DNA of 28,507 nucleotides. Origin: a virus. Taxonomy: Duplodnaviria; Caudoviricetes. Shown piece by piece: positions 2 to 28,507 of the stretch. The position numbers and the translations under genes are program-made. Each line of letters starts with the position of its first letter. Positions within the stretch are counted from its first letter, which is position 1. The stretch spans positions 1 through 28,507 of IMG/VR virus record IMGVR_UViG_3300025736_000137; one strand, given 5' to 3'. The notes below the pieces were generated by a model. That model did no database searches, was not told the origin of the DNA, and saw nothing but the letters and a program-made list of their open reading frames with translations.

Positions 2-322
2 TGCACCAAGCAAGCGGAAGAGTTGGAAAGACTTCAAAAACGTGACTGCTCTGCATCTATTGAATTATGCTTCAATGATGGGACAGACCATTTCGAAAGA
101 GAGTCCCTTAAAATCGTTGGCATTGGTGTGCCTGATAACATCTACATTGTTGAGAGCCAAACAGTGACTAAGGCATTGGCTGAGCGTGACAAGCTACAGC
201 GTAGGATTGATGAAGCGCCAAGAGCAAGCACATCTATTGAGATGGAGACCCTAATATATGAGGGGACTATTGAAACTGACAAAGAATATTCGATTGTAGA
301 ATTGGAGGCCGATGATGCATGA
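2..322 (+). CDS. hypothetical phage protein, 5'-partial
   Basis: Frame is open from base 2. Ends in TGA overlapping the next gene's start region (GGAGGCCGATGATG). Confidence 0.6.
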   Translation, partial: CTKQAEELERLQKRDCSASIELCFNDGTDHFERESLKIVGIGVPDNIYIVESQTVTKALAERDKLQRRIDEAPRASTSIEMETLIYEGTIETDKEYSIVELEADDA

Positions 323-626
323 TGTGAATTGTCCATATTGCGAAGCGGAACAAGAAATATGTCACGATGATGGCCAAGGTTACGCAGAAGATGAGACCCA
401 CCAGCAAGAGTGTTCTGCATGTGGCAAGACGTTCGTCTTCAATACTTCAATCAGTTTCTATTATGAACCAGCGAAAGCGGATTGTCTGAATGATGCTGAC
501 CATATTTATGAACCGACTCACACCTATCCAGTTGAACATTCAAGGATGCGTTGCAAGATGTGTGATAAAGAACGCAAATGCACAGATGAAGAAATGGAAT
601 CTATCCTAATCCAAAGGAGCCGATGA
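312..626 (+). CDS. Cys-rich zinc-ribbon protein
   Basis: CPYC, CSAC, CKMC motifs; GGAGG RBS; TGA stop in an ATGA overlap. Confidence 0.7.
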   Translation: MMHDVNCPYCEAEQEICHDDGQGYAEDETHQQECSACGKTFVFNTSISFYYEPAKADCLNDADHIYEPTHTYPVEHSRMRCKMCDKERKCTDEEMESILIQRSR

Positions 627-826
627 TGAAACAAGCACCAAGTAATTTTTACGCATTCCCCAGGATTGCCAACACCACAATGACTAAGGCAGACTTGTCA
701 GAGTTATTACTTTCCACTGATGGTTTGATTATGACAAATGGCAGAATGTGGGATATAAAATCAAAGAGCTTAGGCGCTGGCATCTACAGAGTGTCCTTAG
801 AATTGAAGGAGGCCGATGATGAGTAA
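623..826 (+). CDS. hypothetical protein
   Basis: AAGGAG RBS; coupled to neighbours. Confidence 0.6.
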   Translation: MMKQAPSNFYAFPRIANTTMTKADLSELLLSTDGLIMTNGRMWDIKSKSLGAGIYRVSLELKEADDE

Positions 827-977
827 AGATGATGTAACAATCAAAGATATATCTGAATTACAACTTGAGATAGCAGGATTAAAAACAATTGGAGAGTGGA
901 AGGCTTGTGTGAAAAGTTTTGCAGTAAAGCACGAACTCACTGATAGAGAAGCTAATGGGATAAAGGAGCAATCATGA
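816..977 (+). CDS. hypothetical protein, 53 aa (not in ORF track)
   Basis: GGAGG RBS, MMSKDDVTIKDISELQ...; ends in TGA in an ATGA overlap with 974. Confidence 0.6.
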   Translation: MMSKDDVTIKDISELQLEIAGLKTIGEWKACVKSFAVKHELTDREANGIKEQS

Positions 978-1591
978 GCGAGATGAGTCTTAGAGAGCAG
1001 TTTGAGAAAGAGACAGGCTACAAGTTGCCTGACGTTAGGGATTACAATTCATTTGAACTGAATGTTAAACTTGCTGATTATTACGAGCGATTTAGTGGAT
1101 GGATGAAATCCAAGTGCGAAGAACTCCAAAAGGAGAACACTAAGCTGAAAGGTAAATATAACCACCTTGAGAATCACGCCAATGAGCGCGTGCATGACCT
1201 ACACCAACAACTCACAGCCCAATCGAAGGAGCTTGAGGCATGGCAAATCCGCCAACCAGAACAGGCGATAGCTGAACTTACCCTTAGTGAACTTGGACTC
1301 AGGATTGCCAAGATAAATGATGCTAACGGCTGGACACCTATAACCCTAGAGGATTGGAATGACGATTATAAAATAACCGCAATGCTTGGACTAATTATGA
1401 CCGAGTGTTCAGAGGCTATTGAAGCGCACAGAGATAATGATTTTGAAAACTTTGGTGAAGAAATGGCAGACATTCTAATCAGAGCAATAGACTTAGCTGA
1501 ACGGCTTAGAATAAAGACCTACGAGGAGATAGTCTCAAAACTTGATAAGAATGAAAATCGAGGGCATAAGCATGGGGGCAAAAGGATATGA
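974..1591 (+). CDS. coiled-coil + MazG-like NTP pyrophosphohydrolase
   Basis: C-terminal LIMTECSEAIEAHR...EEMADILIRAIDL...NENRGHKHGGK MazG-like pattern. Confidence 0.75.
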   Translation: MSEMSLREQFEKETGYKLPDVRDYNSFELNVKLADYYERFSGWMKSKCEELQKENTKLKGKYNHLENHANERVHDLHQQLTAQSKELEAWQIRQPEQAIAELTLSELGLRIAKINDANGWTPITLEDWNDDYKITAMLGLIMTECSEAIEAHRDNDFENFGEEMADILIRAIDLAERLRIKTYEEIVSKLDKNENRGHKHGGKRI

Positions 1592-1660
1592 TTGCTGTCT
1601 GTGAAGGAGGTGGGGAGTGAGTTCTAAACCACTGAAAGCGAACGATGGAAGGAGAGGGAA

Positions 1661-1933
1661 ATGATTGGGGATTACAAGATAGGTGGTGGTTGGGGTGCTC
1701 GTGTAGGCTGGACCAGGCCAGAACAATTTAAGACAGAAGATGAGTACATTGACGATAAGACACTTTTTGATGTTGATGGACACTATACACCAAGGCCGAA
1801 AAAAGGACAAACTCTTATTGGTGAATTTCAAAACAGTTGGATGCAATTTGAATTTGTAGAAATAGACTACATGAGTAACCCGCCCGACATGTTCTTTGCC
1901 AAGGTAAAACCGATAGACCAGGAAACTAAGTGA
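1661..1933 (+). CDS. hypothetical protein
   Basis: GGAGAGGG RBS, 90 aa, TGA stop. Confidence 0.6.
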   Translation: MIGDYKIGGGWGARVGWTRPEQFKTEDEYIDDKTLFDVDGHYTPRPKKGQTLIGEFQNSWMQFEFVEIDYMSNPPDMFFAKVKPIDQETK

Positions 1934-11508: not shown

Positions 11509-11548
11509 ATAATTGTATTTGGATACACTAATAACTATTTATTAACAA

Positions 11549-11631: not shown

Positions 11632-11671
11632 CATTATTATACCCAATTAAACTAAAAAAAGGGGTTACAAA

Positions 11672-12148: not shown

Positions 12149-12185
12149 GTTGCTAAAGTAATAGCGTGTTTTCCCCATCTCGATG

Positions 12186-12193
12186 ATACTTAT
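12186..12193 (+). promoter_or_regulatory. MTAYTTAT motif (candidate late promoter)
   Basis: ATACTTAT just upstream of the GAAGGAG RBS of the GIY-YIG gene. Confidence 0.45.
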
Positions 12194-12210
12194 TATTGAA
12201 GGAGAAAACA

Positions 12211-12906
12211 ATGATTATATACAAAACTACAAACGCCTTAAACGGCAAATTCTACATAGGGAAATCTAAATATGATAACCCCGACTATATTGGTTCGGGG
12301 TCCATATTGAAAAAAGCAATACAAAAATACGGCAAGGAAAATTTTGTCAAGGAAGTTATAGAACGATGTGAGGATGAAACACAATTGAATATCAGGGAAA
12401 TATATTGAATTAAAAAAACTGATGCCATTAATATTGGGTATAATTTATATCCGGGTGGTGAAGGTGGATGCACACCTGAAGCTTCCAAGAAAATAGTTGA
12501 GGCGAGGCATAACAACGGGCAACCATGGCATTCAGCTGAACGCAATCGAAAAGTTTCTATCGCTTTAACTGGTCATAAACAAACGGCCGAAACTAGGAAA
12601 AAGAATAGTGATTCTCACATAGGACAAAAACCGTGAAACGAAGGTTTAACCAATGATGATCCGAGAATCCTAGCTGGTGCAGAGAAACAAAAGGTTACAA
12701 AAAAGAAAAAATTTGCAAGTGGGGAATTGACAAATACTTGGAATAAGGGTAAAACCATTCAAGAACATTTCCAATTAGAATGTCCAGTTTGTGGGCAGGA
12801 ATATGAAATTTATACATACCCATTATGATACAAAAATGGTAGGTATAAGAAAACTTGTTCAAAGCCATGTGCGGATAAAATGATGTGGGAAAGTAGAAGG
12901 AAATAA
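12211..12906 (+). CDS. GIY-YIG homing endonuclease with NUMOD-type repeats and Zn finger; 3 in-frame TGA read as Trp
   Basis: IIYKTTN..NGKFYIGK; TGA at 12406, 12634 and 12826 in EIY*I, KP*NEG, YPL*Y. The frame runs to TAA 12906, abutting ATG 12907. Confidence 0.85.
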
Positions 12907-13089
12907 ATGGAAAATAAAGACGTGACAAAATTTCTCAAATATATTGAGGCTGAATGTTTCTTCGTTAAATTGTGGGAAGAGGAAAATCGGACATTTCATA
13001 TTGATTGTACTTGCCGATATTGTAAGGCTACTGAAGCGTGGATGACGCTTTCATGGTGGAGAAAATTTAAAGCAAAATTGGAGTTATAA
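12907..13089 (+). CDS. hypothetical protein
   Basis: 60 aa, CxCxxC. Confidence 0.6.
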   Translation: MENKDVTKFLKYIEAECFFVKLWEEENRTFHIDCTCRYCKATEAWMTLSWWRKFKAKLEL

Positions 13090-13094
13090 AATTT

Positions 13095-13574
13095 ATGACG
13101 AATAAAATGAAATTATACATCGCGGGTCCCATTACAGGTGGAACATTTGAAGATGTAGAAAAAAAGTGGGCCGGCACTATAAAACGGTTAAAAAAACACT
13201 ATACTATACTATCACCATTATTTGGCAAATCCAAATATATTCGACCGGAAATGCAGTGTGAAGCTTCAGAAGGTCAAGGGATGAAATATCTGTCCCCAAT
13301 CACTACTGATAGGGCAATTGTAGGTCGTGATCACTGGATGGTGGAACAATCTGATATTGTATTTGTGGATTTGGTGGGTTCCAAGATAGTATCAATTGGA
13401 TCGGTATGTGAAATTACCGCTGCATATTTGCACAATAAACACGTTGTGGTAGCTATGGAACAGGGCAATATCCATAGACACGCGTTTGTCTTAATGGAAT
13501 CTGATATTGTATTCCCAAATAGAGAAGACGCGTTGGATTACATTGAAGAATTAGGGAAAAGTTTTAGAGGTTAA
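13095..13574 (+). CDS. nucleoside 2-deoxyribosyltransferase-like protein
   Basis: YIAGP, RD..MV..SD.V.V, SIGS..E..AAY..NK.V pattern. Confidence 0.75.
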   Translation: MTNKMKLYIAGPITGGTFEDVEKKWAGTIKRLKKHYTILSPLFGKSKYIRPEMQCEASEGQGMKYLSPITTDRAIVGRDHWMVEQSDIVFVDLVGSKIVSIGSVCEITAAYLHNKHVVVAMEQGNIHRHAFVLMESDIVFPNREDALDYIEELGKSFRG

Positions 13575-13575
13575 T

Positions 13576-13746
13576 ATGACAAATAAAAAATTAATAGGTT
13601 GGATCATGATTGGAACTTTCGTGGCATTATTATTCGGGGGAGCTGTATTGGTCATGGGATTGCTTAATGCATTAATCCTATGGGGATCGGCGGGAACGTT
13701 GGCTTTCCTTTTCATTTATGGTATAAAATTGATATATGAGAATTAA
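13576..13746 (+). CDS. small two-TM membrane protein (not in track)
   Basis: GAGG RBS; MTNKKLIGWIMIGTFVALLFGG..., 56 aa hydrophobic. Confidence 0.65.
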   Translation: MTNKKLIGWIMIGTFVALLFGGAVLVMGLLNALILWGSAGTLAFLFIYGIKLIYEN

Positions 13747-13749
13747 AAG

Positions 13750-14121
13750 ATGGCAACAAAGGTTACAAAAAAGGTTATTAAAGACATATTCAACTGATGT
13801 TTAACTGAATATGGAATCAGTGAATATCAAGGGTGAGAACCCCACCTAATAATTGACAATACAAAGGATTACCCAAGCAATGGGGAATTTTACTCGGATG
13901 ATAATGATATCTATATATACCCAAAATCAGGTGGAATGGATATCCAAAGGACTATATTTGTGATGATTCACGAATTTAAGCATTATCACCAATCACCAAC
14001 TTGATTGACTCGGTATATCACTATGTACAACAATAATCCCGAATGTCCGTATGAAATAGAGGCGGATGCCCTCGCGGAGAGGGATTGAATGAAATGTTAT
14101 AGGGATTTATTTATAAAATAA
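13750..14121 (+). CDS. HExxH zinc-metallopeptidase-like protein; 4 in-frame TGA read as Trp (missed by track)
   Basis: MATKVTKK...IFN*CL...QG*EP...IHEFKHYHQSPT*LTRY...PYEIEA...RD*MKC; exactly fills the gap. Confidence 0.8.
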
Positions 14122-14133
14122 AGGAACTAGGTT

Positions 14134-14277
14134 ATGGATTTACATGAATTAAGGCTCAATTTTGTTACGTGGTCACCACTATGGGTGATTCCAACGGCAT
14201 TTATTTATTGGCCAACCGGAGTGGCACTACTGGTATTACAGCTCGGTGTGATGTTTTGGGATTTAAAAGTGAATTAA
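14134..14277 (+). CDS. small hydrophobic protein (not in track)
   Basis: 47 aa with a hydrophobic C-terminal half. Confidence 0.55.
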   Translation: MDLHELRLNFVTWSPLWVIPTAFIYWPTGVALLVLQLGVMFWDLKVN

Positions 14278-14282
14278 AAATA

Positions 14283-14333
14283 AAGAAAACGCTTGACTTT
14301 GTCAGTATAATCTTGTATCTTCAAGTATGAAAA
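14283..14333 (+). repeat. 51-bp direct repeat copy 1, containing sigma70-type promoter 3
   Basis: Identical to 15077-15127; TTGACT 14293, TATCTT 14316. Confidence 0.9.
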
Positions 14334-14716
14334 GAGAGGAAAATGTTTTGAAAGTTTGGAAAAAAGAGGAAATTAAAGTATTATTGGAAACCCGGAAGGA
14401 CGCTGTCATTCGGGGTTTGTTGGTTATATACGATAGGCAAACCGAAGATGAGAAAAATTCGGAGATTACCACTCATGCGAATGGGATTGGGTACTCTGGA
14501 GCTCACGCTGAAATTATGACTTCATTCGCGAAGTTCTACAAACAACACAAATTCCTATCTCCCAAGCAGACCAATATCGCTCGGAAGATTATTGTCAAAT
14601 ACGCTAGACAGTTGGCCGATGAAGCTAACGCTAATGAGGAAAAAAAGTGGAAAATATCTAATGGGGAAATTTCAACACCGTCAGCATTGATTGCCATTTG
14701 TGATGAGGACAGATGA
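14327..14716 (+). CDS. conserved phage hypothetical protein
   Basis: IYDRQTEDEK...NGIGYS...LSPKQ...KYARQL; TGA stop in an ATGA overlap. Confidence 0.75.
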   Translation: MKREENVLKVWKKEEIKVLLETRKDAVIRGLLVIYDRQTEDEKNSEITTHANGIGYSGAHAEIMTSFAKFYKQHKFLSPKQTNIARKIIVKYARQLADEANANEEKKWKISNGEISTPSALIAICDEDR

Positions 14717-15090
14717 GTAATAGAATTGATATCCATGGCCATTTGACCACATTCGGGGAAATTTTAAATGAAAAAAGCACATTCAATGAATGGTGGCGTG
14801 GGAATTTTTGTGAAGGATTGTCATGCGTGGGATGTATATATGCTAAGGGAATGTGCCCCGACAAATTTGGGAATATTTTCGAACTCGAGGAAGATAATCA
14901 TCTAGATTCACGAAATGATGAAATCCGAGAGGTAATGGAATGGTTGACAAGTGATCACAAAGCTAAAGAGGAAATCCCTGTTGTTCCCGCGGAGCCAACG
15001 CTCACACTTGAAGAAAAAGTTGACAATCTCACTGCAATGGTGTTGGAAATAAAAGAAGTTTTATGCATAGTCGAGCAAGAAAACGCTTGA
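14713..15090 (+). CDS. hypothetical protein with Cys cluster
   Basis: FCEGLSCVGCIYAKGMC; the TGA stop lies within the -35 of promoter 4. Confidence 0.7.
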   Translation: MSNRIDIHGHLTTFGEILNEKSTFNEWWRGNFCEGLSCVGCIYAKGMCPDKFGNIFELEEDNHLDSRNDEIREVMEWLTSDHKAKEEIPVVPAEPTLTLEEKVDNLTAMVLEIKEVLCIVEQENA

Positions 15091-15127
15091 CTTTGTCAGT
15101 ATAATCTTGTATCTTCAAGTATGAAAA
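15077..15127 (+). repeat. 51-bp direct repeat copy 2, containing sigma70-type promoter 4
   Basis: Identical to 14283-14333; TTGACT 15087, TATCTT 15110. Confidence 0.9.
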
Positions 15128-15474
15128 AGGATAAGACATTGAAAATTAAAAGTTTATACAAACCTATTATCGCCACATTGGGTGGAAAACGATATGTATG
15201 TGGCAATAAATTGGTAGAAATTGAACCACATATCACAATGGAAAATATAGAATGGGAACGCCAGTATCCAATCGGTTTTAGATTGAATGATACTTATGTC
15301 TCCAGAACTTTGGCAATGGTTTCAGGCGGCAATGTCGTTGCAACCATCATCGGTTCCAAAGGTGACACATACAAAATTAAAGAAAATAACGGAAAATATA
15401 ATTGTAATTGTAAGGGGTACACATTTAATTCTAAGTGTAAACACCTTACTAATTTCGTCTCTGAAAGGGAATAA
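15121..15474 (+). CDS. SWIM zinc-finger protein
   Basis: GSKGDTY...CNCKGY...CKH; alternative start TTG 15139. Confidence 0.75.
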   Translation: MKKDKTLKIKSLYKPIIATLGGKRYVCGNKLVEIEPHITMENIEWERQYPIGFRLNDTYVSRTLAMVSGGNVVATIIGSKGDTYKIKENNGKYNCNCKGYTFNSKCKHLTNFVSERE

Positions 15475-15475
15475 A

Positions 15476-16183
15476 ATGGCTCGTAAAAAATTAGCAAAAA
15501 GAACTGCATCAAAATCAAAGGGGAAAACTTTCGATACCAGTTCACAGGCATTCAAATGGGTGGTATGTACTATTGATGGTTGCATCGAAGAAGTTAAGAT
15601 CGACTTCGCGAGCATTAGTGCAATTTGTTACAAACATACAATGGGTAGGGTTCCATTTATCGAACCTGCATCACGTAAAAAGAAATCCACTGGTCGCCCA
15701 CGCGGTTGGCAGTTTATGAATGAATTTGTCGATAGTGACAAAACAGTATTTCATCGGGGTGTAGAACAACCCGAATTAAAGGGTACACTTCCTGTATCAG
15801 ATGTCGTTAAAATCAAAGCCGATCAGAAGCAGTCTGCTAAGGAAAAGAAAGCCCGTAAGACAGATCGGTTAATCAAACGGCACGAAAAGGCTCAAGAGGC
15901 CCGAAGAAAAGATGCCGGTAAGGCAAAACCTGGTCGCCCTAAGACTAAGAAAAAAGCAGTCAAAAAGACTGTTAAAGTCCAGACCAAATTTGGGGATTTG
16001 AAAATTCCATACAAATTAAAAAACAAAAAGTATTTTGTCGCCAGTGATAATAATCGGGCGTGGGGTAAATTTGATACCATGGCTGAAGCCCGAAAAGCTA
16101 AGACTAAGTTCAATCGTGAACATGGTAAGGACAATGTCAAGGGCATTGTATTGGTATCCAAAGACGGTAGGGCTTGGAAATAA
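15476..16183 (+). CDS. very basic putative DNA-binding protein with AT-hook-like GRP motifs
   Basis: Lys-rich; TGRPRG and KPGRPK; start at ATG 15476. Confidence 0.65.
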   Translation: MARKKLAKRTASKSKGKTFDTSSQAFKWVVCTIDGCIEEVKIDFASISAICYKHTMGRVPFIEPASRKKKSTGRPRGWQFMNEFVDSDKTVFHRGVEQPELKGTLPVSDVVKIKADQKQSAKEKKARKTDRLIKRHEKAQEARRKDAGKAKPGRPKTKKKAVKKTVKVQTKFGDLKIPYKLKNKKYFVASDNNRAWGKFDTMAEARKAKTKFNREHGKDNVKGIVLVSKDGRAWK

Positions 16184-16551
16184 TGAAAACTAACATGATT
16201 TTAGAACTTTGGGATGAGAATACTGGGGTGGCACGCAGGTGGAATTCCGATATCAATGATGTTCAATTTAATGAATTGTGGGATAAATATCAAGATGATT
16301 GGAACAAGCTTGAATCTCAAAATGGAACTATGTATTTTAGTGGTTCCCTTGACAATTTCGATGAAAATGACGTTTGGGTTATGGGTTGGAGCTCCAGTGA
16401 AGTTTCCGAATTTGGGAGCTGGGACACCGTTCAAACTGAAATTTTAAGATGGCTTGATGAATCCGGATATTCCTATGAAAGAATTGAAGATCATCAATAT
16501 GAATTGGAAGATGAAGATGAAGAAGAAATAAATGTGAGATTGGACTTCTAA
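16183..16551 (+). CDS. acidic hypothetical protein
   Basis: TAATG overlaps on both sides. Confidence 0.7.
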   Translation: MKTNMILELWDENTGVARRWNSDINDVQFNELWDKYQDDWNKLESQNGTMYFSGSLDNFDENDVWVMGWSSSEVSEFGSWDTVQTEILRWLDESGYSYERIEDHQYELEDEDEEEINVRLDF

Positions 16552-17132
16552 TGAATAAAATTATTACAGACGAAAAACTTCTAAGGAATAAATGTGAAAA
16601 TGTCTCACTTGAAGAGGGTGAGACTATTGCTGCACAATTATTTGAGATACTAACCGCTACTGAATCTGGAGTGGCATTGGCCGCTAATCAGGTGGGGATT
16701 AACAAGAATGTGGTGGTTATCAATGTAAAAGAACCCATCTATCTTATTAATCCAATTATCACATCACAGTCCGGTGAAGTCTATTATGACGAGGGGTGTT
16801 TATCATTCCCAGGACAATCCGTAAAAACAAAAAGATTTGACACAATAGAAGTAGTATCAGATAATTACCCGGCCGGTGTATGTTTTACCGCATTGGGTAA
16901 AAATGAAATTGATACATTGGAATGTGTCGCCGCACAACATGAAATCGACCATCTGAATGGTGTTGTCATGTTTGATAGGGAATATAAACCAACTCCAATC
17001 AAAGCTGAGCACAATTTTGGTAGGAATGAAAAGGTTACCATTTCTAAAGATGAAGAAAAACGTGAAATAAAGTGGAAAAAGGCAGAAAAGTTGATAGAAA
17101 CCGAAGGCTGGAAACTACTTATAGATGGATAA
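16551..17132 (+). CDS. def: peptide deformylase
   Basis: GVALAANQVG, EGCLS, QHEIDHLNG; GRNE-type C-terminal extension. Confidence 0.95.
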   Translation: MNKIITDEKLLRNKCENVSLEEGETIAAQLFEILTATESGVALAANQVGINKNVVVINVKEPIYLINPIITSQSGEVYYDEGCLSFPGQSVKTKRFDTIEVVSDNYPAGVCFTALGKNEIDTLECVAAQHEIDHLNGVVMFDREYKPTPIKAEHNFGRNEKVTISKDEEKREIKWKKAEKLIETEGWKLLIDG

Positions 17133-17147
17133 ATAAAGGAAAAGGTT

Positions 17148-18305
17148 ATGGGCATTATTAAAAGTATTTTGGACAACGATCAGTATAAGCTGTCAATGAT
17201 GAAAGCTGCAATCTCTGAGTATCCAAATACAATTGTAAAGTACAAATACAAAAACCGATCACCAAAAAATCAAATCTTTACTCAAGATCATGTTGATAGA
17301 CTTAAATATGAAATTGAAGAAATGAAGCATCTGGCATTAACAGGTGCTGAAAAAGAATTTTTGGCAAAAAAATCATCCTATCTGGGGCCAATGTTTTTGG
17401 ATTTCCTGAGTGGATATCGTTATGACCCAAGTGAAGTAACTGTAAATCTGGTTGGAAGTGAAATTGAACTAACCATTTACGGATTATGGTATAGAACCAT
17501 TCTCTGGGAAGTTCCACTTATGGCTCTCATTTCTGAGATTTATTTCGAAGGAACTGAGCTGGATATGGATTTGGTATTGAATAATATCATATCAAAAAAA
17601 CACATGATTGAAGGAGCTGAAATTAATGTTTCAGATTTTGGTACTAGACGCCGATTCTCATTGATGATTCACCAGCTGGTGGTGGAAACTTTGAAAGACG
17701 TGTTGGTTGGTACAAGTAATGTGTATCTAGCTTTCCTTTTCAATCTAATACCAATTGGGACACACGCTCATGAATGGTTTATGTTCCACGGGGCCAAATA
17801 TGGTTATCGTTCCGCAACCTACAAATCCTTAGAGAAATGGAGTAATGTCTACAGGGGCAACCTTGGAATAGCATTAACAGATACATATACTACAGACGTA
17901 TTTTTACGTGATTTTGATATGTATTTCGCCAAATTATTTGATGGTGTCAGGCAAGACAGCGGTGACGAAATAGAATTTGGTGAAAAGTTTATTAATCATT
18001 ATGAGAGTATGGGAATTGATCCGGCTACCAAAGCTGTTATCTTTTCAAATGCTCTAACAATCAAGAAATGTGTCACAATCAACGACCATTTCAGAGGCAA
18101 AATTAAAGATGGGTATGGAGTCGGCACACATTTCAGTAATGATGTCGGTGTAACACCCATGAACATGGTTATTAAATTGAGTGGGATTTATGATCAGAAT
18201 GGTGAATTAATCCACGCAGTAAAATTATCAGATGATAAAGAGAAAAATACAAGTGATTCAGTGGAAGCAATTGAGAATTGCAAATTCAGCTTGGGATTAC
18301 AATAA
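17148..18305 (+). CDS. pncB: nicotinate phosphoribosyltransferase
   Basis: DQYK, DFGTRRRFS, GTSNV, GTHAHEW, RQDSGD, VKLSD motifs. Confidence 0.93.
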   Translation: MGIIKSILDNDQYKLSMMKAAISEYPNTIVKYKYKNRSPKNQIFTQDHVDRLKYEIEEMKHLALTGAEKEFLAKKSSYLGPMFLDFLSGYRYDPSEVTVNLVGSEIELTIYGLWYRTILWEVPLMALISEIYFEGTELDMDLVLNNIISKKHMIEGAEINVSDFGTRRRFSLMIHQLVVETLKDVLVGTSNVYLAFLFNLIPIGTHAHEWFMFHGAKYGYRSATYKSLEKWSNVYRGNLGIALTDTYTTDVFLRDFDMYFAKLFDGVRQDSGDEIEFGEKFINHYESMGIDPATKAVIFSNALTIKKCVTINDHFRGKIKDGYGVGTHFSNDVGVTPMNMVIKLSGIYDQNGELIHAVKLSDDKEKNTSDSVEAIENCKFSLGLQ

Positions 18306-18311
18306 AAATGA

Positions 18312-19946
<1,635 letters not shown>

Positions 19947-19956
19947 AAAATAACGG

Positions 19957-19991
19957 TTGACTTTCACCTGAATATCTTGTATATTCAGGTG
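19957..19991 (+). promoter_or_regulatory. sigma70-type promoter 5 overlapped by a perfect 11-bp inverted repeat
   Basis: TTGACT-17-TATATT; CACCTGAATAT-cttgt-ATATTCAGGTG (19965-19991). Confidence 0.75.
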
Positions 19992-20010
19992 TAAGGAAAA
20001 AGGAGATTAT

Positions 20011-20814
20011 ATGGATGTACAAAAACAAATTGATGGTTTGACAAAACAAATCAAAGATTATGTTCATGGGGCAGGTAAAAAAGGTGTGGTAATTGGAATG
20101 AGTGGTGGAATTGATTCTGCTGTCTCATTTGAACTCGCCATTAAGGCATTAGGGGCTGACAACGTATTCGCTGTTAGTATCCCTATTTTAGCTAATACAG
20201 GTGAAGAGTTTTCATCCGCGAGTGACATGTGGGGATATGTTTGGGAAAAGCGTGGAGTACGGCATGTAACCGCTCACGCTAGTTCACCAGTCATAGCAAC
20301 GACATCTGCCGTTGAAAAGGCATTGGGTCACAAATTGAAAAATAACCTGACTTATGCCAATATTCAAGCTAGGGAACGTATGAATGTTCTTTACGCTTTC
20401 GCATCCGAATTGGATTATCTTGTTATCGGAACTGGTAATAAATCAGAACACAAAATTGGTTATTTTACAAAATGGGGTGACGGTGGAGTTGACTTTGAAC
20501 CACTTGGAGCATATTACAAAGACGAAGTTTATGAACTTGGTAGAGCATTATATGTACCAGGTTGGATTCTAAACGCCGCTCCTTCTGCTGGGTTATGGGA
20601 AGGTCAAACTGATGAAAATGAAATCGGTATGAGTTATGATGAACTTGATTCTTATTTGAGATGGGATGAGTTTCAAAATTCCCTTTTTGAATTTGATGAG
20701 GAGAATGGGAAAAATTGCCCACTCAGCCCTGAGAAACAAAAAATAGTTGTTAAATTAATGGGGGCAGCTAATCATAAGAATAAAATGCCACCAACATTTG
20801 AAAGGTCAGAATAA
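20011..20814 (+). CDS. nadE: NH3-dependent NAD+ synthetase
   Basis: SGGIDS, NIQARERM, GTGNKSE, GYFTKWGDG, PSAGLWEGQTDE; no glutaminase domain. Confidence 0.95.
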   Translation: MDVQKQIDGLTKQIKDYVHGAGKKGVVIGMSGGIDSAVSFELAIKALGADNVFAVSIPILANTGEEFSSASDMWGYVWEKRGVRHVTAHASSPVIATTSAVEKALGHKLKNNLTYANIQARERMNVLYAFASELDYLVIGTGNKSEHKIGYFTKWGDGGVDFEPLGAYYKDEVYELGRALYVPGWILNAAPSAGLWEGQTDENEIGMSYDELDSYLRWDEFQNSLFEFDEENGKNCPLSPEKQKIVVKLMGAANHKNKMPPTFERSE

Positions 20815-21329
20815 TGGCAGTAAAAGTATTATACAAAGGTAAGTGGATGGAAATGCATGGCCGTGAAGTTGATGGTCATGATGATTATGAATTCACCCAC
20901 AGAGCGGGTGGCCGAGAAGCCGTTTATATGATTCCAACAACTGAAAATAATGAATTGATTATGATTTTGAATCATAGGTATTCAGTTAATAAAAAAGTAT
21001 TGGAATTTCCAGCTGGGCTTATGGATGAAGGTGAAGAACCATTCCATACGGCCAACAGGGAACTTCTTGAAGAAACTGGATATGAAGCCAATGTGGTTAT
21101 AATGCACCCATTGGGGATGAGCAACTCTGGGGGATCGGATGAAGAAGTTTGGGCCGCTAGAATGAAGGGTTGCAAGAAAATTAGTGAACAACAATTGGAT
21201 GACGGTGAAAATATTGAGGTGTTGATAATCCCAGAATATGATCTGATTTCGACAATAATGGGGTACCGTGATTTGGGATTTAAAATAAGTTCAAGAGTAA
21301 TCGCCTACATGATAGGTAAAGGAGAGTAG
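20814..21329 (+). CDS. Nudix hydrolase, ADP-ribose pyrophosphatase-like
   Basis: LEFPAGLMDEGE...ANRELLEETGY Nudix box; LDDGENIEV. Confidence 0.85.
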   Translation: MAVKVLYKGKWMEMHGREVDGHDDYEFTHRAGGREAVYMIPTTENNELIMILNHRYSVNKKVLEFPAGLMDEGEEPFHTANRELLEETGYEANVVIMHPLGMSNSGGSDEEVWAARMKGCKKISEQQLDDGENIEVLIIPEYDLISTIMGYRDLGFKISSRVIAYMIGKGE

Positions 21330-21330
21330 C

Positions 21331-21963
21331 ATGGGAAAAACAGCGTTATTAGTAGTGGATGTACAAAAAGATTTTTGTGAAGGTGGCCCATTGGCCGTTC
21401 CAGAAGCGGAGATGGTTGTACCAATTATCAATGAATTGATGGAAAAGGTCAGTTTTGATTTGATAGTGGGTACTATGGATTTTCATCCTAAAGGTCATGG
21501 TAGTTTTGCATCGACTCATGGGGCCGAAGTATTTAGCATGGGTGAGCTTGGTGGAAACCCACAGGTAATGTGGCCCGATCACGCGATACAGGGAACAGAT
21601 GGCGCTCGTTATCATAAACAGCTTAATCAGGGCGACTTGGAATACATTGTACACAAAGGGTTTAATCCTGATGCAGATTCCTATAGTGGATTCGCTGATG
21701 CAGATGGAACAGAAACGGATTTAAATAAATTCCTACAAGACCATGCCATTGAAACTGTTTATGTGGTTGGATTGGCTACCGATTATTGTGTCAAATTTAC
21801 TGCCTTAGATTCTTTAAGTCGTGGTTATGATACCATTATGGTGCTCGATGCCGTAAGGGGTGTTGAACAGAATCCCGGTGATTCTGAGGCCGCTATTGAT
21901 GAATTTTTCAAAATGGGTGGAGAAGTTACGCTTTCTGAAACTCTTTTGAAATATGGATTATAA
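21331..21963 (+). CDS. pncA: nicotinamidase
   Basis: VDVQKDF, DFHP..H.SF, WPDH, KG...DSYSGF, GLATDYCV (Asp-Lys-Cys triad). Confidence 0.93.
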   Translation: MGKTALLVVDVQKDFCEGGPLAVPEAEMVVPIINELMEKVSFDLIVGTMDFHPKGHGSFASTHGAEVFSMGELGGNPQVMWPDHAIQGTDGARYHKQLNQGDLEYIVHKGFNPDADSYSGFADADGTETDLNKFLQDHAIETVYVVGLATDYCVKFTALDSLSRGYDTIMVLDAVRGVEQNPGDSEAAIDEFFKMGGEVTLSETLLKYGL

Positions 21964-23068
21964 GATGCAAAAGGCTCTAACCTTCGATGATGTAACGATT
22001 ATCCCAAAATATTCGGAAGTAGAATCTAGATCAGAATGTGACGTGTCAACGCACATTACAAGCAATTGGGTATTGGATATTCCGATTATCGCCACAGCGA
22101 TGGATTCCGTATGTGAATCTCGTATGGCAATTTTGATGTATAAGTATGGTGGTATTGGGTTCATCCATAGATTTATGTCTATTGATAAGCAGGTTGAAGA
22201 GGTCGAAAAAACATTAAATAGTGTAAAAATTTATGAGGGCTGGGATGTCCACAATGATGTTGATTTGAAATATCCAATTGGTGCCGCTATCGGCATTAAA
22301 GAGGAAGAGAAACAACGCGCTGCAAAATTGATTGAAGCTGGGGTGGATATTCTTATGATTGATGTAGCACATGCTCATCATGTGGGGGTTAAACGCATGT
22401 TGGGATGGCTCAAAAAGAACCATCCAAAAACCGATTTATTTGTTGGAACGGTTGCAACCGCCGAAGCTACCCACGATTTAATTAAATGGGGAGCAGATGG
22501 AATTCATGTCGGTGTAGGCGGCGGTTCATTATGTGAAACTCGTATTAGAGCCGGCGTTGGAATCCCAATGATTTCATCCGTTCAGGAATGCGTAGAAGCA
22601 ATGTCATACTTATGTGAAATGGGAGAACCCAAAAAATTACGTGTAGGCAAACATGTTCCAATTTCATCAAATGGTGGCATCACTACTCCCGGAGATATGG
22701 CTAAAGCAATTGGTGCTGGTGCAAGTACGGTTACGATTGGTTCACTCCTAGCAGGAACAAAAGAGACCCCCGGTGCATTCAAAAGAGAAGGGAAATATCC
22801 CAATGAACAACTATATAAAGAATATAGGGGTTCGGCGTCATTATCTTCCAAATTGGATCGTGGAGAATCAACACATATTGAAGGAAATAGTGTGCGTGTA
22901 CTATTCAAGGGTTCTGCCAAAAGAATTCTAAAGGAACAGGTTGAGGGTCTGAAATCTGCCATGAGTTATTGTGGTGCGGTTGACATTGAAACCTTTCAAG
23001 CGAATTGTGATTTTGTGGGGGTGACACCTGCTGGTCAAGTAGAAGCAAAACCCCATTTGATGACTTAA
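21953..23068 (+). CDS. IMP dehydrogenase/GMP reductase family protein (no CBS domain)
   Basis: [22 protein letters not shown] (catalytic Cys), YRGSAS...IEG. Confidence 0.88.
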
Positions 23069-23161
23069 AAATTTAAAGTATTTTAAAATAAATGCGTTAA
23101 AAATTAAAGTTTCCTCTATTTAATTAATGACAAGACTAATTAATCATAGGAGGAAATTATC

Positions 23162-23338
23162 ATGGACAAATTAGACATTATTTTAAGTCTACTTGAAGAA
23201 GCATTGGAAGATGCCGATTGGGAAAAAGTTGGTGAAGCTCATAGCATTCTGATTGCACAATATGAAGACCCATATAGTGAATACAATTTAGATGATATCG
23301 GCAATACGTCAGATAATTCTGATGTTTGAGACGACTAG
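23162..23338 (+). CDS. small acidic protein; in-frame TGA near C-terminus (…DV*DD)
   Basis: AGGAGG RBS; TGA 23327, then GAC GAC TAG. Confidence 0.65.
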
Positions 23339-23341
23339 GTA

Positions 23342-23349
23342 ATACTTAT
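23342..23349 (+). promoter_or_regulatory. MTAYTTAT motif (candidate late promoter)
   Basis: ATACTTAT upstream of the structured RNA and tmRNA. Confidence 0.45.
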
Positions 23350-23357
23350 ATATACAG

Positions 23358-23500
23358 ATGGAGCACCACCTAAGAGCCGAGGCGTTCAAGGTGCCCTACT
23401 ATTGGAAACTCACCATACTTAGGAAAACCAATAGTGGCTACAATTAATGGGGTTGTGGTCAACGTAGTGAACAATTTAGCGGGGTCACTACCCATTAACT
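23358..23500 (+). ncRNA. candidate structured RNA upstream of tmRNA
   Basis: Four predicted stems and a CCTAAG/CTTAGG loop-loop complement; family not recognised. Confidence 0.4.
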
Positions 23501-23501
23501 C

Positions 23502-23882
23502 GGGGCGAAATTTGGTTTCGACGGGATGATTTTTGACAATTGGTGCAAGTAGTGATGGTACACTTTAAAAAGCCAAAAGACCAAGTAATTGGCACACAAG
23601 TACAATACGCAGTCGCAGCTTAATAAGCGGACTTCCGAATCCTATCCGATTCTAATAAGATAACGATTCGTCATTAATTAGATTTGTCCAACCGATGTGG
23701 GACGAATAAATCCAGAACCGGCGTTCCAGATCAATTCGGGGAGTACGATAACTGAAATAGGATGACGGGATATTTTTTGTAACTTTTTGAGAAATCCGAC
23801 ATCAAACATAAAAGGATGCTAAACTTGTAACGACCGATTGGTGAATACATTGCGGACTAGGGTTCAAATCCCTATCGCTCCA
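23502..23882 (+). ncRNA. ssrA: tmRNA, tag peptide (A)GTQVQYAVAA
   Basis: 5' GGGGCGA...GGTTTCGACGGG; 3' GGACTAGGGTTCAAATCCCTATCGCTCCA with G3-U70; tag ORF 23591-23623. Confidence 0.93.
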
Positions 23883-23889
23883 CAACATT

Positions 23890-23946
23890 ATTATCGAGCG
23901 TTCTGGGTTCCTAACTCGTATGAGAAGGGCTCAGATGCGATGATAT
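23890..23946 (+). other. long hairpin downstream of tmRNA
   Basis: TCTGGGTTC/GGGCTCAGA and CTC-GTAT-GAG stems, ATTATC/GATGAT base. Confidence 0.4.
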
Positions 23947-23968
23947 TTCAATTAAAAATGGAGGTTAT

Positions 23969-24529
23969 ATGATAGAATATTGTAAGGGCGATTTATTACA
24001 ATCTGATATTAAATACATTGCACATGGGTGCAACTGTAAATTATCAATGGGTGCCGGAATAGCACAACAAATCAGACACCAATTCCCAAAGGCTCACAAG
24101 GCTGATCTAGAAACCCTATGGGGCGACCCCGCAAAAATGGGGACATTCACAGAAGCATATCAACATGGAAAAGTCATTATAAACGCATATACTCAATTCA
24201 ACTATTCAACGGACAAGCTCGATGTCGATTATGACGCGGTGCGCACAGTCATGGAAAAGATTGAATTGCTTCTACAAAAAGAAGAAAATATGTGGGAAGA
24301 GGGAGATGAGGAATACAAGAGTATTCAATTGGGCATGCCACGTATTGGATGTGGACTTGCTGGGGGAGATTGGAATATTGTAGAAGGTATTTTGGATGAG
24401 GTGTTTGCAAATAGAACAATTTATGTGTATGATTGGAAAAACCCAGATTGGATATTATCGGGTGATGAATGGGATCGCGTAGAAAAGAATTTTAAAAATG
24501 GTACTTGGAAAGTATCACAGGAAGGTTAG
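23969..24529 (+). CDS. macro domain protein (Poa1p/T4 Tk.4-like ADP-ribose processing)
   Basis: KGDLL, HGCNC..MGAGIA, NAYTQ, MPRIGCGLAGGDW. Confidence 0.9.
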   Translation: MIEYCKGDLLQSDIKYIAHGCNCKLSMGAGIAQQIRHQFPKAHKADLETLWGDPAKMGTFTEAYQHGKVIINAYTQFNYSTDKLDVDYDAVRTVMEKIELLLQKEENMWEEGDEEYKSIQLGMPRIGCGLAGGDWNIVEGILDEVFANRTIYVYDWKNPDWILSGDEWDRVEKNFKNGTWKVSQEG

Positions 24530-24532
24530 GTT

Positions 24533-25318
24533 ATGTTTAAATTAACAGCAGAAGAAATTACAGAATCTTATGAAAAATTGATTGATATCATTGACAGCAC
24601 TTTTGAAGGTGAACGTCGTGATAATTTGATTAAGATGTATGAGCATTTCGGTGACAGATTATTATTGGCACCGGCTAGTGGAAAAGATCATTTTCACTTA
24701 GCAGTACCGGGTGGGTATCTCAAACACGTTTTGAATATAATTGAAGTATCAGAGATGATGGCTAAAATGTATAGGCACATTGGTGGTACAACGGACTTCA
24801 CTGACGAAGAGAGAATCTTTGCGGCTATGCACCACGATCTAGGGAAGCTTGGAGATATTGATAATGATTACTATGTTCCAGCTACAAACGACTGGCAAAT
24901 TAAAAGGGGCATCAGATACGAATATAATTCAAATTTGAATTTTATGGATGTTACTGATAGGTCTCTATTTTTATTGCAACAATTCGATATCAAAATTACA
25001 GATAATGAAATGTACGGCATCAGACTAGCCGATGGAATGTTCAAGGAATTGAACAAGTCATATTTCAATACATATAGTGATGACATGCAAATGAAGAATC
25101 ATCTGCCGTTTATCATTCATTGGGCCGATTGGATGTCTACTAGAATGGAATACGACACTCGGATGAATGTTGTAAATCTGGAAACTAAACAAGAGAAAAA
25201 AGCGATAAATAATATAAAAGATTCATTGATTAAACCCAAAGCAAAACCTGAGAAGGTTACGTCTAAGGTTGACCCAATGGCCACTTTTAGTAAATTTTTC
25301 GATGAAATGGAGAAATAG
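24533..25318 (+). CDS. HD-domain phosphohydrolase
   Basis: APAS...H...GGYLKHVLN...HHDLGK...HWAD. Confidence 0.85.
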   Translation: MFKLTAEEITESYEKLIDIIDSTFEGERRDNLIKMYEHFGDRLLLAPASGKDHFHLAVPGGYLKHVLNIIEVSEMMAKMYRHIGGTTDFTDEERIFAAMHHDLGKLGDIDNDYYVPATNDWQIKRGIRYEYNSNLNFMDVTDRSLFLLQQFDIKITDNEMYGIRLADGMFKELNKSYFNTYSDDMQMKNHLPFIIHWADWMSTRMEYDTRMNVVNLETKQEKKAINNIKDSLIKPKAKPEKVTSKVDPMATFSKFFDEMEK

Positions 25319-25319
25319 T

Positions 25320-25661
25320 ATGAATTTAAAAAACATCCTTATTGGGATTGGGAGTGTGTGATTTTTAGCGGTTAATTTATTAGTCATAAATGTATATTTT
25401 GGGATAGGGTGGTTATCTATTGGATTATTCGGTGTGCTATTATTAATGGCATCTATGGGATATGTCATATATAATCAATTCCAGAAAAATATATTTCTAG
25501 AACAGTGGGTGGAAGCATTCACTGTAAAAATCATTCACGTGAATGAAGAATTAGATAGGATTGATTCGACTGGAGTCTTCAAAGCAGATGATGAGGTTGG
25601 ATTCGTCTTCACAGAAATTAAGGAAGTAGTAGCGATGCTATCCGAATTAGTAGAGGAATAA
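25320..25661 (+). CDS. membrane protein; in-frame TGA at codon 14 read as Trp
   Basis: ATG 1 nt after the previous TAG; MNLKNILIGIGSV*FLAVNLL... continues in frame into the track ORF at 25434. Confidence 0.7.
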
Positions 25662-25662
25662 A

Positions 25663-26550
25663 ATGGCGAGAAAAAAGAAAAAGAGCAACATGTATTTCAC
25701 AATGGAAACCCAAGACGCGATTAACCGGTATAATGAGAGATTGAGCAGATGTTGTAATCATCATCCAGCGGATTGGGTAATTTCCAATTCCGAGATATTG
25801 GCAAAATTGGGATATACCCCAGATCAAATTGCCGAAAAAAGTAAGGAAATCAAAGCGGTTAAAGTGGAAGATGTATGTGGAGAATGCTATAGCATAGCTG
25901 AATATGATTTTGCAAGGACTCATTCTGAGAGGAATATTATTTACAGAAATGAGATACAATTCGCATTTGATAAATTGGCTGAGAATATTATCCACACTTT
26001 CAAATTTTATTATTTTGATATTCCAGTGGAAGATGTCATGGCCGAAGTGGTGTCATTTTTGATAATGAACATCCACAAATACAAACCATGTAAAGGGAAA
26101 GCGTTTTCCTATTTCAGTATTGTTGTTAAGAATTATTTGATATTGCACAACAATAGAAATTATGCAAAGAAGAAAATCCATGACAGCGTCGATACTATTG
26201 ATTTTGTCAGGAACATTACCACAGAACAAAAGCAAGCCCATCTCAAAGAGGACAAGGCCGAATTTATCCATTATCTCATAGAATATTGGGAGAACAATTT
26301 AACCACAGTATTCAAGCGCAAGAAGGATATTGGGGTAGCCGATTCAGTAGTGCATCTATTAAGAACCTGTGATGAGATTGAAAACTTCAACAAGAAATAT
26401 TTGTATGTATTAATCAGAGAATTGAATGGTTCCAAAACCCAGCATATCACTCGGATTATCAACATTATGAAAAAACACAATGAGAAACTATTGAAGCAAT
26501 TTAATTCTACTGGATATGTGGATACTGCTTGTACGGGTTCATTCTTGTAA
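25663..26550 (+). CDS. phage sigma-factor-like protein with Cys-rich insertion
   Basis: YFT.ETQDAI..YN, KLAENIIHTFKF, KGKAFSYFSIVVKNYL (region-2-like). Confidence 0.65.
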   Translation: MARKKKKSNMYFTMETQDAINRYNERLSRCCNHHPADWVISNSEILAKLGYTPDQIAEKSKEIKAVKVEDVCGECYSIAEYDFARTHSERNIIYRNEIQFAFDKLAENIIHTFKFYYFDIPVEDVMAEVVSFLIMNIHKYKPCKGKAFSYFSIVVKNYLILHNNRNYAKKKIHDSVDTIDFVRNITTEQKQAHLKEDKAEFIHYLIEYWENNLTTVFKRKKDIGVADSVVHLLRTCDEIENFNKKYLYVLIRELNGSKTQHITRIINIMKKHNEKLLKQFNSTGYVDTACTGSFL

Positions 26551-26578
26551 AAAATTAACACATTTTGGAGACTACAAC

Positions 26579-26608
26579 AGGGCACTATTTATTTAGTGCC
26601 CTTTTTTT
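26579..26608 (+). terminator. intrinsic terminator
   Basis: AGGGCACTA/TAGTGCCCT stem followed by a T run. Confidence 0.85.
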
Positions 26609-26616
26609 GTTTATTC

Positions 26617-26624
26617 ATATTTAT
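26617..26624 (+). promoter_or_regulatory. MTAYTTAT motif (candidate late promoter)
   Basis: ATATTTAT immediately after the terminator, ahead of the structural genes. Confidence 0.5.
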
Positions 26625-26663
26625 TAGTGAGTTATAATATCACACCTTAGAGGAAATAAAAAA

Positions 26664-27083
26664 ATGAACACAGAATATGAAATTTTCAAAGATAAGACAC
26701 TATCTTCACTATTCGAGGATATATATGTCAATTCAACCGATAATAAGGCACAGCTGGAATTATTGATTGAAAAAGTAGCATTGCTGATTACGAATACATC
26801 TTCAGCCGCTACAATTGTTCCAGTAGTCAAAGAATTTTTTGATATCAAAGTTAAAAACGATGAGAACCTTATTAAGCTCGCTGGAATCATTCAGAAATTA
26901 ATCTCTGCAGAGGGTAAGGGTGGATCGGAAAGGGAGTTCGGAATGTCTGATGATGAAAAGGCCCGACTTCTAGATGATGCTACCAATGAAATAGACAAAT
27001 TGAAAAAGAAAACCACAACGGTAACCGATGAAATTGGAAAAATAATCCCAAAGGAATTTATAGATGGCGTGGAAAAAAAGTAA
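26664..27083 (+). CDS. conserved large-phage hypothetical protein
   Basis: IFKDKTLSSLFEDIY...IVPVVKEFFDIKVKNDE.L.KLA.IIQ; GAGG RBS. Confidence 0.75.
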   Translation: MNTEYEIFKDKTLSSLFEDIYVNSTDNKAQLELLIEKVALLITNTSSAATIVPVVKEFFDIKVKNDENLIKLAGIIQKLISAEGKGGSEREFGMSDDEKARLLDDATNEIDKLKKKTTTVTDEIGKIIPKEFIDGVEKK

Positions 27084-28140
27084 TAACATATCAAATTTAC
27101 CTTCATTTAACAATGGAGTTACTTCTCTTGGAGACGTTTACAGGTTGCAAAAAACCAGAGAGAATAGCGAAGAATTTTATGAATTGGAAATTGCCGAAGT
27201 CATTGAAATAATGCTGGATCAGGATGATTTGCCAGAAATGGAAGATGGTACGGTTGATTACTCACTTATAGGGGCCGCCAAGTTAAGAATGGTATATAGT
27301 GAGCATGGCAAAAATGAATCCGAGTTGAGTTGGACTTATCCAATGGATACAAATTTAAAGGAATATCCATTAAAGGGTGAATATGTTATAGTACAAAGTT
27401 ATTTGGGCCAACAATTTTATGGTCAAAAAGTGAATTTATTAGCTTCAGTTAATTCCAATTCCATCCCCGGTATAAGTAATAATGCGGGTGATGATTCGGA
27501 ATTTGAGATTGGGGACATTTTCACAATCAATACGGATATTAGACAACTATGACCACATGAGGGTGATATCATATTTAATGGCCGCTTTGGTCAGGGGATA
27601 CGATTTGGTAAAAATGATCTGGATGATACGCTACCTCCAAATATAAAAATTTCAGTTGGTCATGCCGATTTTGATAACACTGTTTTACATAAACCCGCCG
27701 ATGAAAGTTTGGATGAAGACGCATCCTCAATATGGATGGTATCCAATGAGGAAGTATCCATCGTTCAGGGGTATCTAAGTGCCTTAATACCATCATTAAA
27801 TGAAGGTAAGCAAATTATATTAAATTCTGATAAGTTGATATTTAATACTAAGAACGGCGGTGACATTGGGATGTTGTCAAGTAACAATATTGTTCTGGGG
27901 GCTACTGCTAAGGTGGTGGTTGAATCTCCGGAAATCAAATTTGGTTCGGATGACGCTACAGAGCCACTAGTATTGGGGGAAGTGTTGCAAGGATTATTGG
28001 GGGAATTGATAGACGCTATAAATTCGATATCCGTTCCAACTGGAGTAGGCCCAAGCGGGCCACCAGTTAATGCGGCACAGTTTGCGGCTATAAAAACAAA
28101 ATTGGGACAAATGTTAAGTCCCCAAAATAAGACGCTTTAA
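27064..28140 (+). CDS. baseplate hub/spike-like structural protein; in-frame TGA at 27550 read as Trp
   Basis: Track ORFs 27064 and 27709 are in one frame joined by IRQL*PHEGDIIFNGRFGQGIRFG; C-terminal PLVLGE...PTGVGPSGPPVN. Confidence 0.75.
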
Positions 28141-28142
28141 TC

Positions 28143-28507
28143 ATGCCATTATTACAACCAATATTGGCGAAAAATTTGGGCGATTTAATGACAATGGAAG
28201 AGGGAAAAGATGTGACACCCAAAGATTGGGCCGATGCAGTTGGGGATTATTTCCAACAATCATTATTTCCAATTGCCGGAGGGAATCTAGCCGGAGCCAA
28301 ATCCGCATTTATTGCAACGATTGGGCCCACTTTTCCACCAGTTGGGGCATTGCCCCTTTTACAATTGGCATTTTTACAATTTGCCGTAGTGGCGTCGTCA
28401 ATACCGGGAACAGGGGGACCAAACATTCCACCAGTTACCCCATTGATATTGGCACCAATAATTCCGATTGGGATGGGAGGTGCACCGGCACCAGTAGTTG
28501 CAAACGC
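28143..28507 (+). CDS. Pro/Gly-rich probable structural protein, 3'-partial
   Basis: ATG 2 nt after the stop; frame is open to the window end. Confidence 0.65.
   Translation, partial: MPLLQPILAKNLGDLMTMEEGKDVTPKDWADAVGDYFQQSLFPIAGGNLAGAKSAFIATIGPTFPPVGALPLLQLAFLQFAVVASSIPGTGGPNIPPVTPLILAPIIPIGMGGAPAPVVAN

Follow-up and report, generated by a model that had tools for sequence, protein, structure and literature searches.

In a T4-like myovirus from salt-lake metagenomes, TGA codons stand at tryptophan (Trp) positions in virion genes, endonuclease genes and a few others, and it is likely that they reflect a code switch brought about by a phage-made decoder late in infection. A part of this phage, the window, was analyzed, i.e., 28,507 nt of the IMG/VR record IMGVR_UViG_3300025736_000137; coordinates are window positions unless a contig is named. 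The window contains ten in-frame TGA codons in five open reading frames (ORFs, Table 1). They had been reported in an earlier note on this DNA (the original prediction), and the positions and frames of all ten were verified. The 46 curated genes right of 2 kb end with TAA (36), TAG (7) or TGA (3), in agreement with the earlier count of three TGA stops in about 47 genes, and they contain 128 TGG codons in addition to the ten in-frame TGA codons. The reported uneven usage was also found: all nine Trp codons of gene 7170 and all eight of gene 16183 are TGG, and all four of gene 13750 are TGA.

Extent of the Phage Genome and Reproducibility of the TGA Codons

The window was extended by 22.5 kb downstream with assembly G002 and by 13.3 kb upstream with G004, and a further 10 kb were obtained from L320, beyond which additional contig searches gave nothing more. 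The 140 kb contig G003, which encodes capsid, portal, terminase, polymerase and RecA, has no direct overlap with the window and was taken as the same phage based on a shared promoter repeat, the source datasets and the recoding. L321 links G003 to the upstream region at the promoter repeat, although it may be a misjoin. The phage sequence analyzed thus comprised 214,245 bases, with at least 21 kb and two gaps outside it. The datasets listed as containing the phage include none from RNA.

The TGA codons were found repeatedly. Assembly G002 is 100% identical to window positions 2258-20000, and L001 and L002, which cover 17064-28507, differ from the window only beyond about 28330. Contigs of eight runs were compared, three of which were flagged as a possible source, with a site coverage that varied by run. 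A single change was found at any of the TGA codons, i.e., 12828 A>G in run X9, which results in TGG and is accompanied by three neighbouring changes. Further sense TGA codons, beyond those described originally, were found in the G002 continuation just past the window end, where gene 28143 contains two. In the whole set, a rough gene call, in which some gene ends are wrong, resulted in 338 genes with 937 TGG codons and 95 sense TGA codons in 59 genes. Essential genes are included, e.g., the terminase (three TGA), the portal and a gp25-like gene (two TGA), and one gene of 1778 aa and one of 848 aa contain five and four TGA codons, respectively. Recoding that is so sparse is easily overlooked, and gene calling would split the terminase, portal and spike genes into pieces.

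Sequencing errors, including misreads of TGG as TGA, or nonsense mutations in decaying genes are an extremely improbable source of these codons. Two window sites, 23327 and 25359, indeed need not be read through. However, the same codons occur in other assemblies and runs, the roughly 95 sites are spread over 59 called genes that include terminase and portal, and two TGA sites are shared with the sister phage G010, which is about 82% identical in the best-matching stretch.

Tryptophan at the TGA Positions

Homologue alignments, in which TGA was entered as X, were used to analyze which residue is found at the TGA columns. Eight of the ten window sites were backed by a homologue or an allele. 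The clearest case was position 12406 in the GIY-YIG gene, with Trp in 118 of 119 homologues. At 12634 Trp was present in the closest homologue and in 7 of 46 overall, and 12826 lies outside of the homologue coverage and is backed by the TGG allele of run X9. The gene at 13750 has a single homologue, P0002, which has W, F, W and W at 13795, 13834, 14002 and 14086. At 27550, the two closest of 120 homologues have Trp, and most of the distant ones have Q, L or K. The last two sites are weak: 23327 lies three codons ahead of the TAG stop, and 25359 lies in an N-terminal stretch without a counterpart in the relatives. For gene 25320, a TGA that seemed to be conserved in relatives was apparent only, as it came from sequence upstream of their start.

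For 20 TGA columns, the majority residue in relatives was W in ten cases, Y in four, L in two, and F, R, K and T in one case each. The columns are thus rich in Trp, as the original prediction had implied, and judged by these alignments, in-frame TGA is Trp in this phage. In the thioredoxin encoded on L320 (15752-15997, minus strand), the Trp of the WCxxC motif is encoded by TGA.

The TGA codon of the predicted central tail spike gene (27064) was analyzed also at the protein level. A stop at 27550 would truncate the protein at residue 162, and the best 120 homologues include proteins with lengths of 362-503 aa. The structure model (predicted local distance difference test score, pLDDT, 77.6) matched P1, P2 gpV, pyocin and VgrG spikes, with a best E-value of 1.7e-4 and low TM-scores, and the protein is predicted to fold like a gp5/VgrG/gpV spike.

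Distribution of TGA over Gene Classes

The automatic TGA counter may overcount, and the class counts were therefore based on named genes (Pfam, PHROG, position). The 26 structural genes contain 34 TGA and 146 TGG codons, and 16 of them carry TGA. For replication (20 genes) the ratio of TGA to TGG was 1:84, for metabolism and take-over (18 genes) it was 0:54, and for glycosylation (15 genes) 6:83. The seven homing endonuclease genes had 14 TGA (one of which may be a stop) and 27 TGG. The TGA share of Trp codons was thus much higher in structural genes (34/180) than in the 38 replication and metabolic genes taken together (1/139, Fisher p=2e-8). Base composition does not explain this bias, because codons for Lys, Glu and Gln end with A at a share of 0.61-0.80 in both classes, compared with 0.19 versus 0.01 for Trp. 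TGA codons did not clump significantly at the gene level (p=0.08), and sense and stop TGA codons are not distinguished by the base that follows them.

The proposed restriction of sense TGA to a gene class was thus supported by the counts. "TGA as stop early and as Trp late" is also the best reading of them, although it rests on gene class and the timing is deduced from it. The proposed gating of these genes may not be an adaptation: 81% of the structural Trp codons are TGG, this phage has no TGA in its genes for major capsid, tail tube and tape measure, the TGA sites turn over between phages (see below), and TGA stops are not more common in early units than in late ones.

Comparison with Related Phages

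Relatives were collected via the capsid and spike genes, which resulted in 65 loci, many of them near-duplicates. No in-frame TGA was present in the aligned codons of 64 of them. The sister phage G010 is recoded, and its capsid is 89% identical to that of this phage. At 32 shared Trp columns, TGG was found in both phages in 26 cases, TGA in both in two, TGA only in this phage in two, and TGA only in G010 in two. Because there is one recoded sister, many relatives are unrecoded and few TGA sites are shared, these comparisons indicate that the recoding is young and that TGA sites turn over between the sister phages. One of the TGA codons specific for G010 falls in its major capsid gene, an argument for a decoding that is efficient late in infection. 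The stop codons were compared for 30 genes with counterparts; five genes end with TGA in at least one relative and with TAA or TAG here, and the reverse was found once, numbers that are too small to show purging.

Promoter-Like Motifs and TGA as Stop

Two promoter-like motifs were found, a sigma70 type and a TA[CT]TTAT type, which on G003 precedes the scaffold/capsid and tail-tube genes. In units with the late-type motif 55 of 501 Trp positions (11.0%) are TGA, compared with 18 of 386 (4.7%) in units with the sigma70-type motif (gene-level permutation, p=0.003). In the window, MTAYTTAT is enriched (17 copies versus 8.5 expected). The proposal that all five genes with sense TGA lie in units headed by this motif was confirmed in part: the motif also heads TGA-free genes, and the nearest intergenic copy for 23162 (at 23342) lies behind the gene.

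The TGA stops reported near sigma70-type promoters were found to end at 14716 and 15090. The first is likely a true stop and is part of an ATGA overlap, and the second lies inside the -35 box of the promoter that follows. In 25 of 34 promoter copies, including window 15087-15121, the TGA of the -35 box is located exactly 33 bases before an in-frame ATG, and a gene that ends in the box would therefore be fused to the next gene upon read-through. At three further TGA stops (322, 626 and 977), read-through would enter the next gene and proceed 136-298 nt through four to eight more TGA codons. The genes with these three stops were thus shaped by the standard code.

A Likely Host with a Probable Standard Code

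In the phylum of G057 (Neomarinimicrobiota), the gene for the histone-like protein Hc1 has matches at the DNA level in 27 of 401 genomes, compared with none in the 232 and 151 genomes of two other groups. The protein is 68-70% identical to those of two Marinimicrobia genomes, compared with at most 55% among the listed best matches in the phylum of G061. The likely host is a Marinimicrobia bacterium with RF2. Of 27 Marinimicrobia genomes, 26 had an RF2 score above the cut-off, and two loci have genes ending in TGA. Spacer-like matches to one 20-kb piece of the phage were not found in the 232, 401 and 151 genomes. A quick GroEL tree, in which 13 rows were probably wrong-strand frames and the phage was not resolved, was not used.

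These results bear on the possibility that the host itself uses code 4 and never stops at TGA, and that the phage matches it. The small number of genes ending in TGA (3/46 right of 2 kb) would fit, and the host assignment is indirect. However, a code-4 host would permit TGA in all genes, and early-type genes have it at one of 139 Trp positions; TGA in most genes of all classes would be expected from matching to a code-4 or code-25 host, and it was found in 59 of 338 called genes and in one of 38 replication and metabolic genes. The ATGA overlaps and the consequences of read-through at the three stops described above also speak against it, as do RF2 and the TGA-ending genes of the likely host group. 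Simple code matching to the host is unlikely, and a code-4 host is given very little probability.

A Proposed Code Switch and the Search for Its Decoder

According to the favoured explanation, the standard-code host would stop at TGA via RF2 early in infection, and early genes would have to avoid this codon. The phage-made decoder would build up, and TGA would then be read as Trp, with a decoding that is good enough for the capsid gene of the sister phage. TGG-to-TGA mutations would accumulate wherever late expression permits. The explanation starts from the observed codons, Trp columns, class bias and recoded sister; we infer host, timing and decoder. Most likely, this decoder would be a tRNA(UCA) encoded outside the 214 kb. 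Rather than being a selected gate, a block on premature synthesis of virion proteins may have arisen as a by-product, a view that is favoured because the TGA sites turn over.

The search for suppressor tRNAs included ARAGORN with default and relaxed settings, introns of up to 2500 nt, a scan for orphan T-arms, and Rfam; the L320 region was checked by ARAGORN and six PHROG scans only. Intron-split TCA tRNA calls had scores of 86-89, as in shuffled sequence (88-89 in two of three shuffles), and one inspected call lies inside a 792-codon ORF.

Several results weigh against a code switch. Neither the tRNA-Trp(TCA) nor the phage RF1 that the original prediction had considered was found in the 214 kb: tRNA(UCA) is not among the 48 tRNAs detected by ARAGORN, with at least 21 kb of the genome outside the search, and no match to the RF-1 family was obtained in five records and none to TrpRS in four. 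The clearest TGA stops are located in a region with about 60% depth that may have been imported recently. Early-type units show no enrichment of TGA stops (7/142 versus 8/144 in late-type units, uncurated gene calls). The split is not purely late, as RecA and several glycosylation genes carry TGA, and the host assignment rests on one gene for 60 aa, Hc1. In addition, high-copy structural genes have TGA at 1/24 Trp positions, compared with 33/156 in other structural genes (p=0.051), which fits incomplete read-through.

The near absence of TGA from high-copy structural genes would also be expected if there was no switch and UGA was always leaky in the host, so that TGA is tolerated in genes with low product amounts only, and the dispensable endonucleases are indeed richest in TGA. 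However, the low-abundance replication enzymes have one TGA in 85, the genes of 1778 aa and 848 aa contain five and four TGA codons, the major capsid gene of G010 contains one, and constant leakiness does not fit with the 64 of 65 relative loci without TGA. This possibility is regarded as quite unlikely.

Another rival does without tRNA(UCA): the Trp tRNA of the phage would accumulate and decode UGA as near-cognate. The near-complete array of 48 contains a single Trp tRNA, which has a CCA anticodon, a length of 83 nt, a long variable arm and a weak D arm (L062 5865-5947, minus strand), and the low TGA share fits weak decoding. Its anticodon stem has a G-U wobble as top pair above four pairs. 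G-U counts as a pair, and thus the stem is not unpinned as defined by Fakih et al. (PMC13092985), and at least 21 kb were outside of the search. Moreover, long-arm tRNA-Trp(CCA) is common in large phages (at least 120 loci, including L078-L197, about 350 estimated), and the same top pair occurs in 15 of 84 distinct examples. All 15 terminase matches in phages with this tRNA (42 records) were unbroken, and no convincing in-gene TGA was detected in 19 stretches of 20 kb from 13 records, not all of which contain late genes. Apparent in-gene TGA codons in seven of these stretches look like shadow frames or a gene junction. Because the tRNA is common in phages and those tested are unrecoded, it is not sufficient for recoding and probably not the decoder. 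Near-cognate reading by this tRNA is thus seen as unlikely, and a similarly small chance is given to its action as late decoder together with an unrecognised RF2 antagonist or an anticodon modification. If true, decoding by tRNA-Trp(CCA) would account for recoded phages without a suppressor tRNA. A literature search on long-variable-arm phage tRNA-Trp(CCA) found no paper.

Additional RNA elements are encoded in the tRNA region. An RNase P class A-like RNA (L062 2136-2339, minus strand; 46 bits, E=3e-11, under the gathering score) lies at the end of the tRNA array, and a similar-looking stretch is located just before it. A GOLLD RNA (L062 6364-6834, minus strand) lies within a 35-tRNA array, and other long non-coding gaps look structured. 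About 6890-6700 bases upstream of the window, L062 contains a tRNA-like gene in which acceptor stem and D arm are paired and the anticodon region has about 97 extra bases, called by ARAGORN as Ile(tat) with intron (score 100). The phage also has genes for Tpt1 (window 4440-4988), for an RNA ligase and for a PNKP. The 11 tRNAs of the window do not include one with the anticodon TCA.

Relation to Known Recoding Systems

A late-gene TGA-to-Trp pattern that includes homing endonucleases is already known: Borges et al. (10.1101/2021.08.26.457843) describe TGA-to-Trp (code 4) phages of standard-code hosts, the Agate and Jade clades. This phage resembles them in that TGA stands for Trp in structural genes and in a homing endonuclease gene, that the replication genes keep to the standard code, that the recoding is partial, that closely related phages use the standard code, that TGA stops are few and that the recoded modules are scattered. 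In contrast to the described phages, which are from the gut and infect Firmicutes or Bacteroidetes, this phage is a salt-lake T4-like myovirus with a likely Marinimicrobia host. TGA is present in 17% of its called genes (59/338) compared with 26-71%, no tRNA/TrpRS/RF1 module was found in 214 kb, and no lysis cassette was identified in gene-family scans, unlike in the phages of that study. According to the same text, a TGA suppressor occurs in only 35% of code-4 genomes, and code-25 phages have the recoded codon in about 90% of their genes. New are thus habitat, lineage, likely host and the sparse stage, although the tables of Borges et al. could hold relatives of this phage. A literature search for such recoding in a salt-lake or Marinimicrobia phage found no paper.

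Two experimental systems are related to the decoder question. According to Fakih et al., a tRNA-Trp(CCA) whose anticodon stem has 4 bp reads UGA, and an unpinned top pair raises read-through in E. coli. Like that Blastocrithidia-like system, this phage combines in-frame UGA codons and a Trp tRNA that has the anticodon CCA and a weak top pair, and no tRNA(UCA) was found in its 214 kb. The G-U top pair, the long variable arm and the occurrence of the same type in unrecoded phages are different from that system; the word "phage" is absent from that paper. For the TrpRS:tRNA(UCA) pair of phage AP1, the published report (PMC12636597) describes experimental UGA-to-Trp decoding against RF2 competition; neither component was found in the 214 kb of this phage. 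The bS21-encoding myoviruses (PMC9723584) are described as assigned to Bacteroidetes and free of stop-codon reassignment, and like them this phage has a bS21 gene amid structural genes (together with Hc1, L063 17781-18423). The major capsid protein is 52% identical to that of Flavobacterium phage immuto.

Late-gene TGA-to-Trp recoding, described for gut phages, is thus extended to a myovirus from a salt lake, likely of Marinimicrobia. The recoding is at a young and sparse stage in this phage, which has one recoded sister and many relatives without recoding, and this suits a comparison of drift with selected gating. The importance would be much greater if the closed genome had no tRNA(UCA).

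Features of the Window

The features of the window are summarized in Table 1. The designation of 13750 as a protease is tentative; besides the HExxH motif, there are weak matches (DUF6782, E=0.046; nearest named Atlas cluster Peptidase_M78).

Table 1. Genes with in-frame or terminal TGA codons, promoter-like motifs and tmRNA in the window.
Feature	Position	Strand	Basis or remark
GIY-YIG/NUMOD3 homing endonuclease, 231 aa, three TGA (12406, 12634, 12826)	12211..12906	+	Pfam and PHROG matches
HExxH protein, 123 aa, possible metallopeptidase, TGA at 4/4 Trp positions	13750..14121	+	homologue P0002
Acidic protein, 58 aa, TGA 23327 (weak site)	23162..23338	+	ORF with TAG stop
Membrane protein, TGA 25359 (weak site)	25320..25661	+	sequence comparison
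Predicted central tail spike (gp5/VgrG/gpV-like), 358 aa, TGA 27550	27064..28140	+	homologues and structure model
Baseplate-region gene, 150 aa, only start in window, two TGA beyond window end	28143..28507	+	G002 continuation
Gene with TGA stop, ATGA overlap (14713-14716), under sigma70-type promoter	14327..14716	+	likely true stop
Gene whose TGA stop is part of the -35 box of the following promoter; in-frame fusion to 15121 would result from read-through	14713..15090	+	
Sigma70-type promoter repeat TTGACT-17-TATCTT, presumably early	14293..14322	+	copies also at 3096, 7776, 15087, 19957
MTAYTTAT motif, putative late promoter	12186..12193	+	copies also at 3618, 11535, 23342, 26585, 26617
Five small genes with TGA stops, ATGA overlaps in two of them	23..1933	+	depth about 60% of the rest
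tmRNA	23502..23883	+	

The left end of the window (1-2567) has a higher GC content, TGA stops and about 60% depth in several runs, and it is probably a variable island. A block of host-like genes (16551-23883) encodes peptide deformylase, NAPRTase, GroEL, NAD synthetase, a Nudix protein, an isochorismatase-family protein, IMPDH and the tmRNA, and ClpP (8733) and PTH2 (2740) are further host-like genes. Outside of the window, L065, L067 and L068 contain four Mom-family genes, a DruA-like gene and a 15-kb glycosylation cluster, which suggest DNA or virion modification. The region 25663-26550 encodes a protein of 295 aa that has no family match and no TGA, and it has a motif that may resemble T4 gp55-type late sigma factors.

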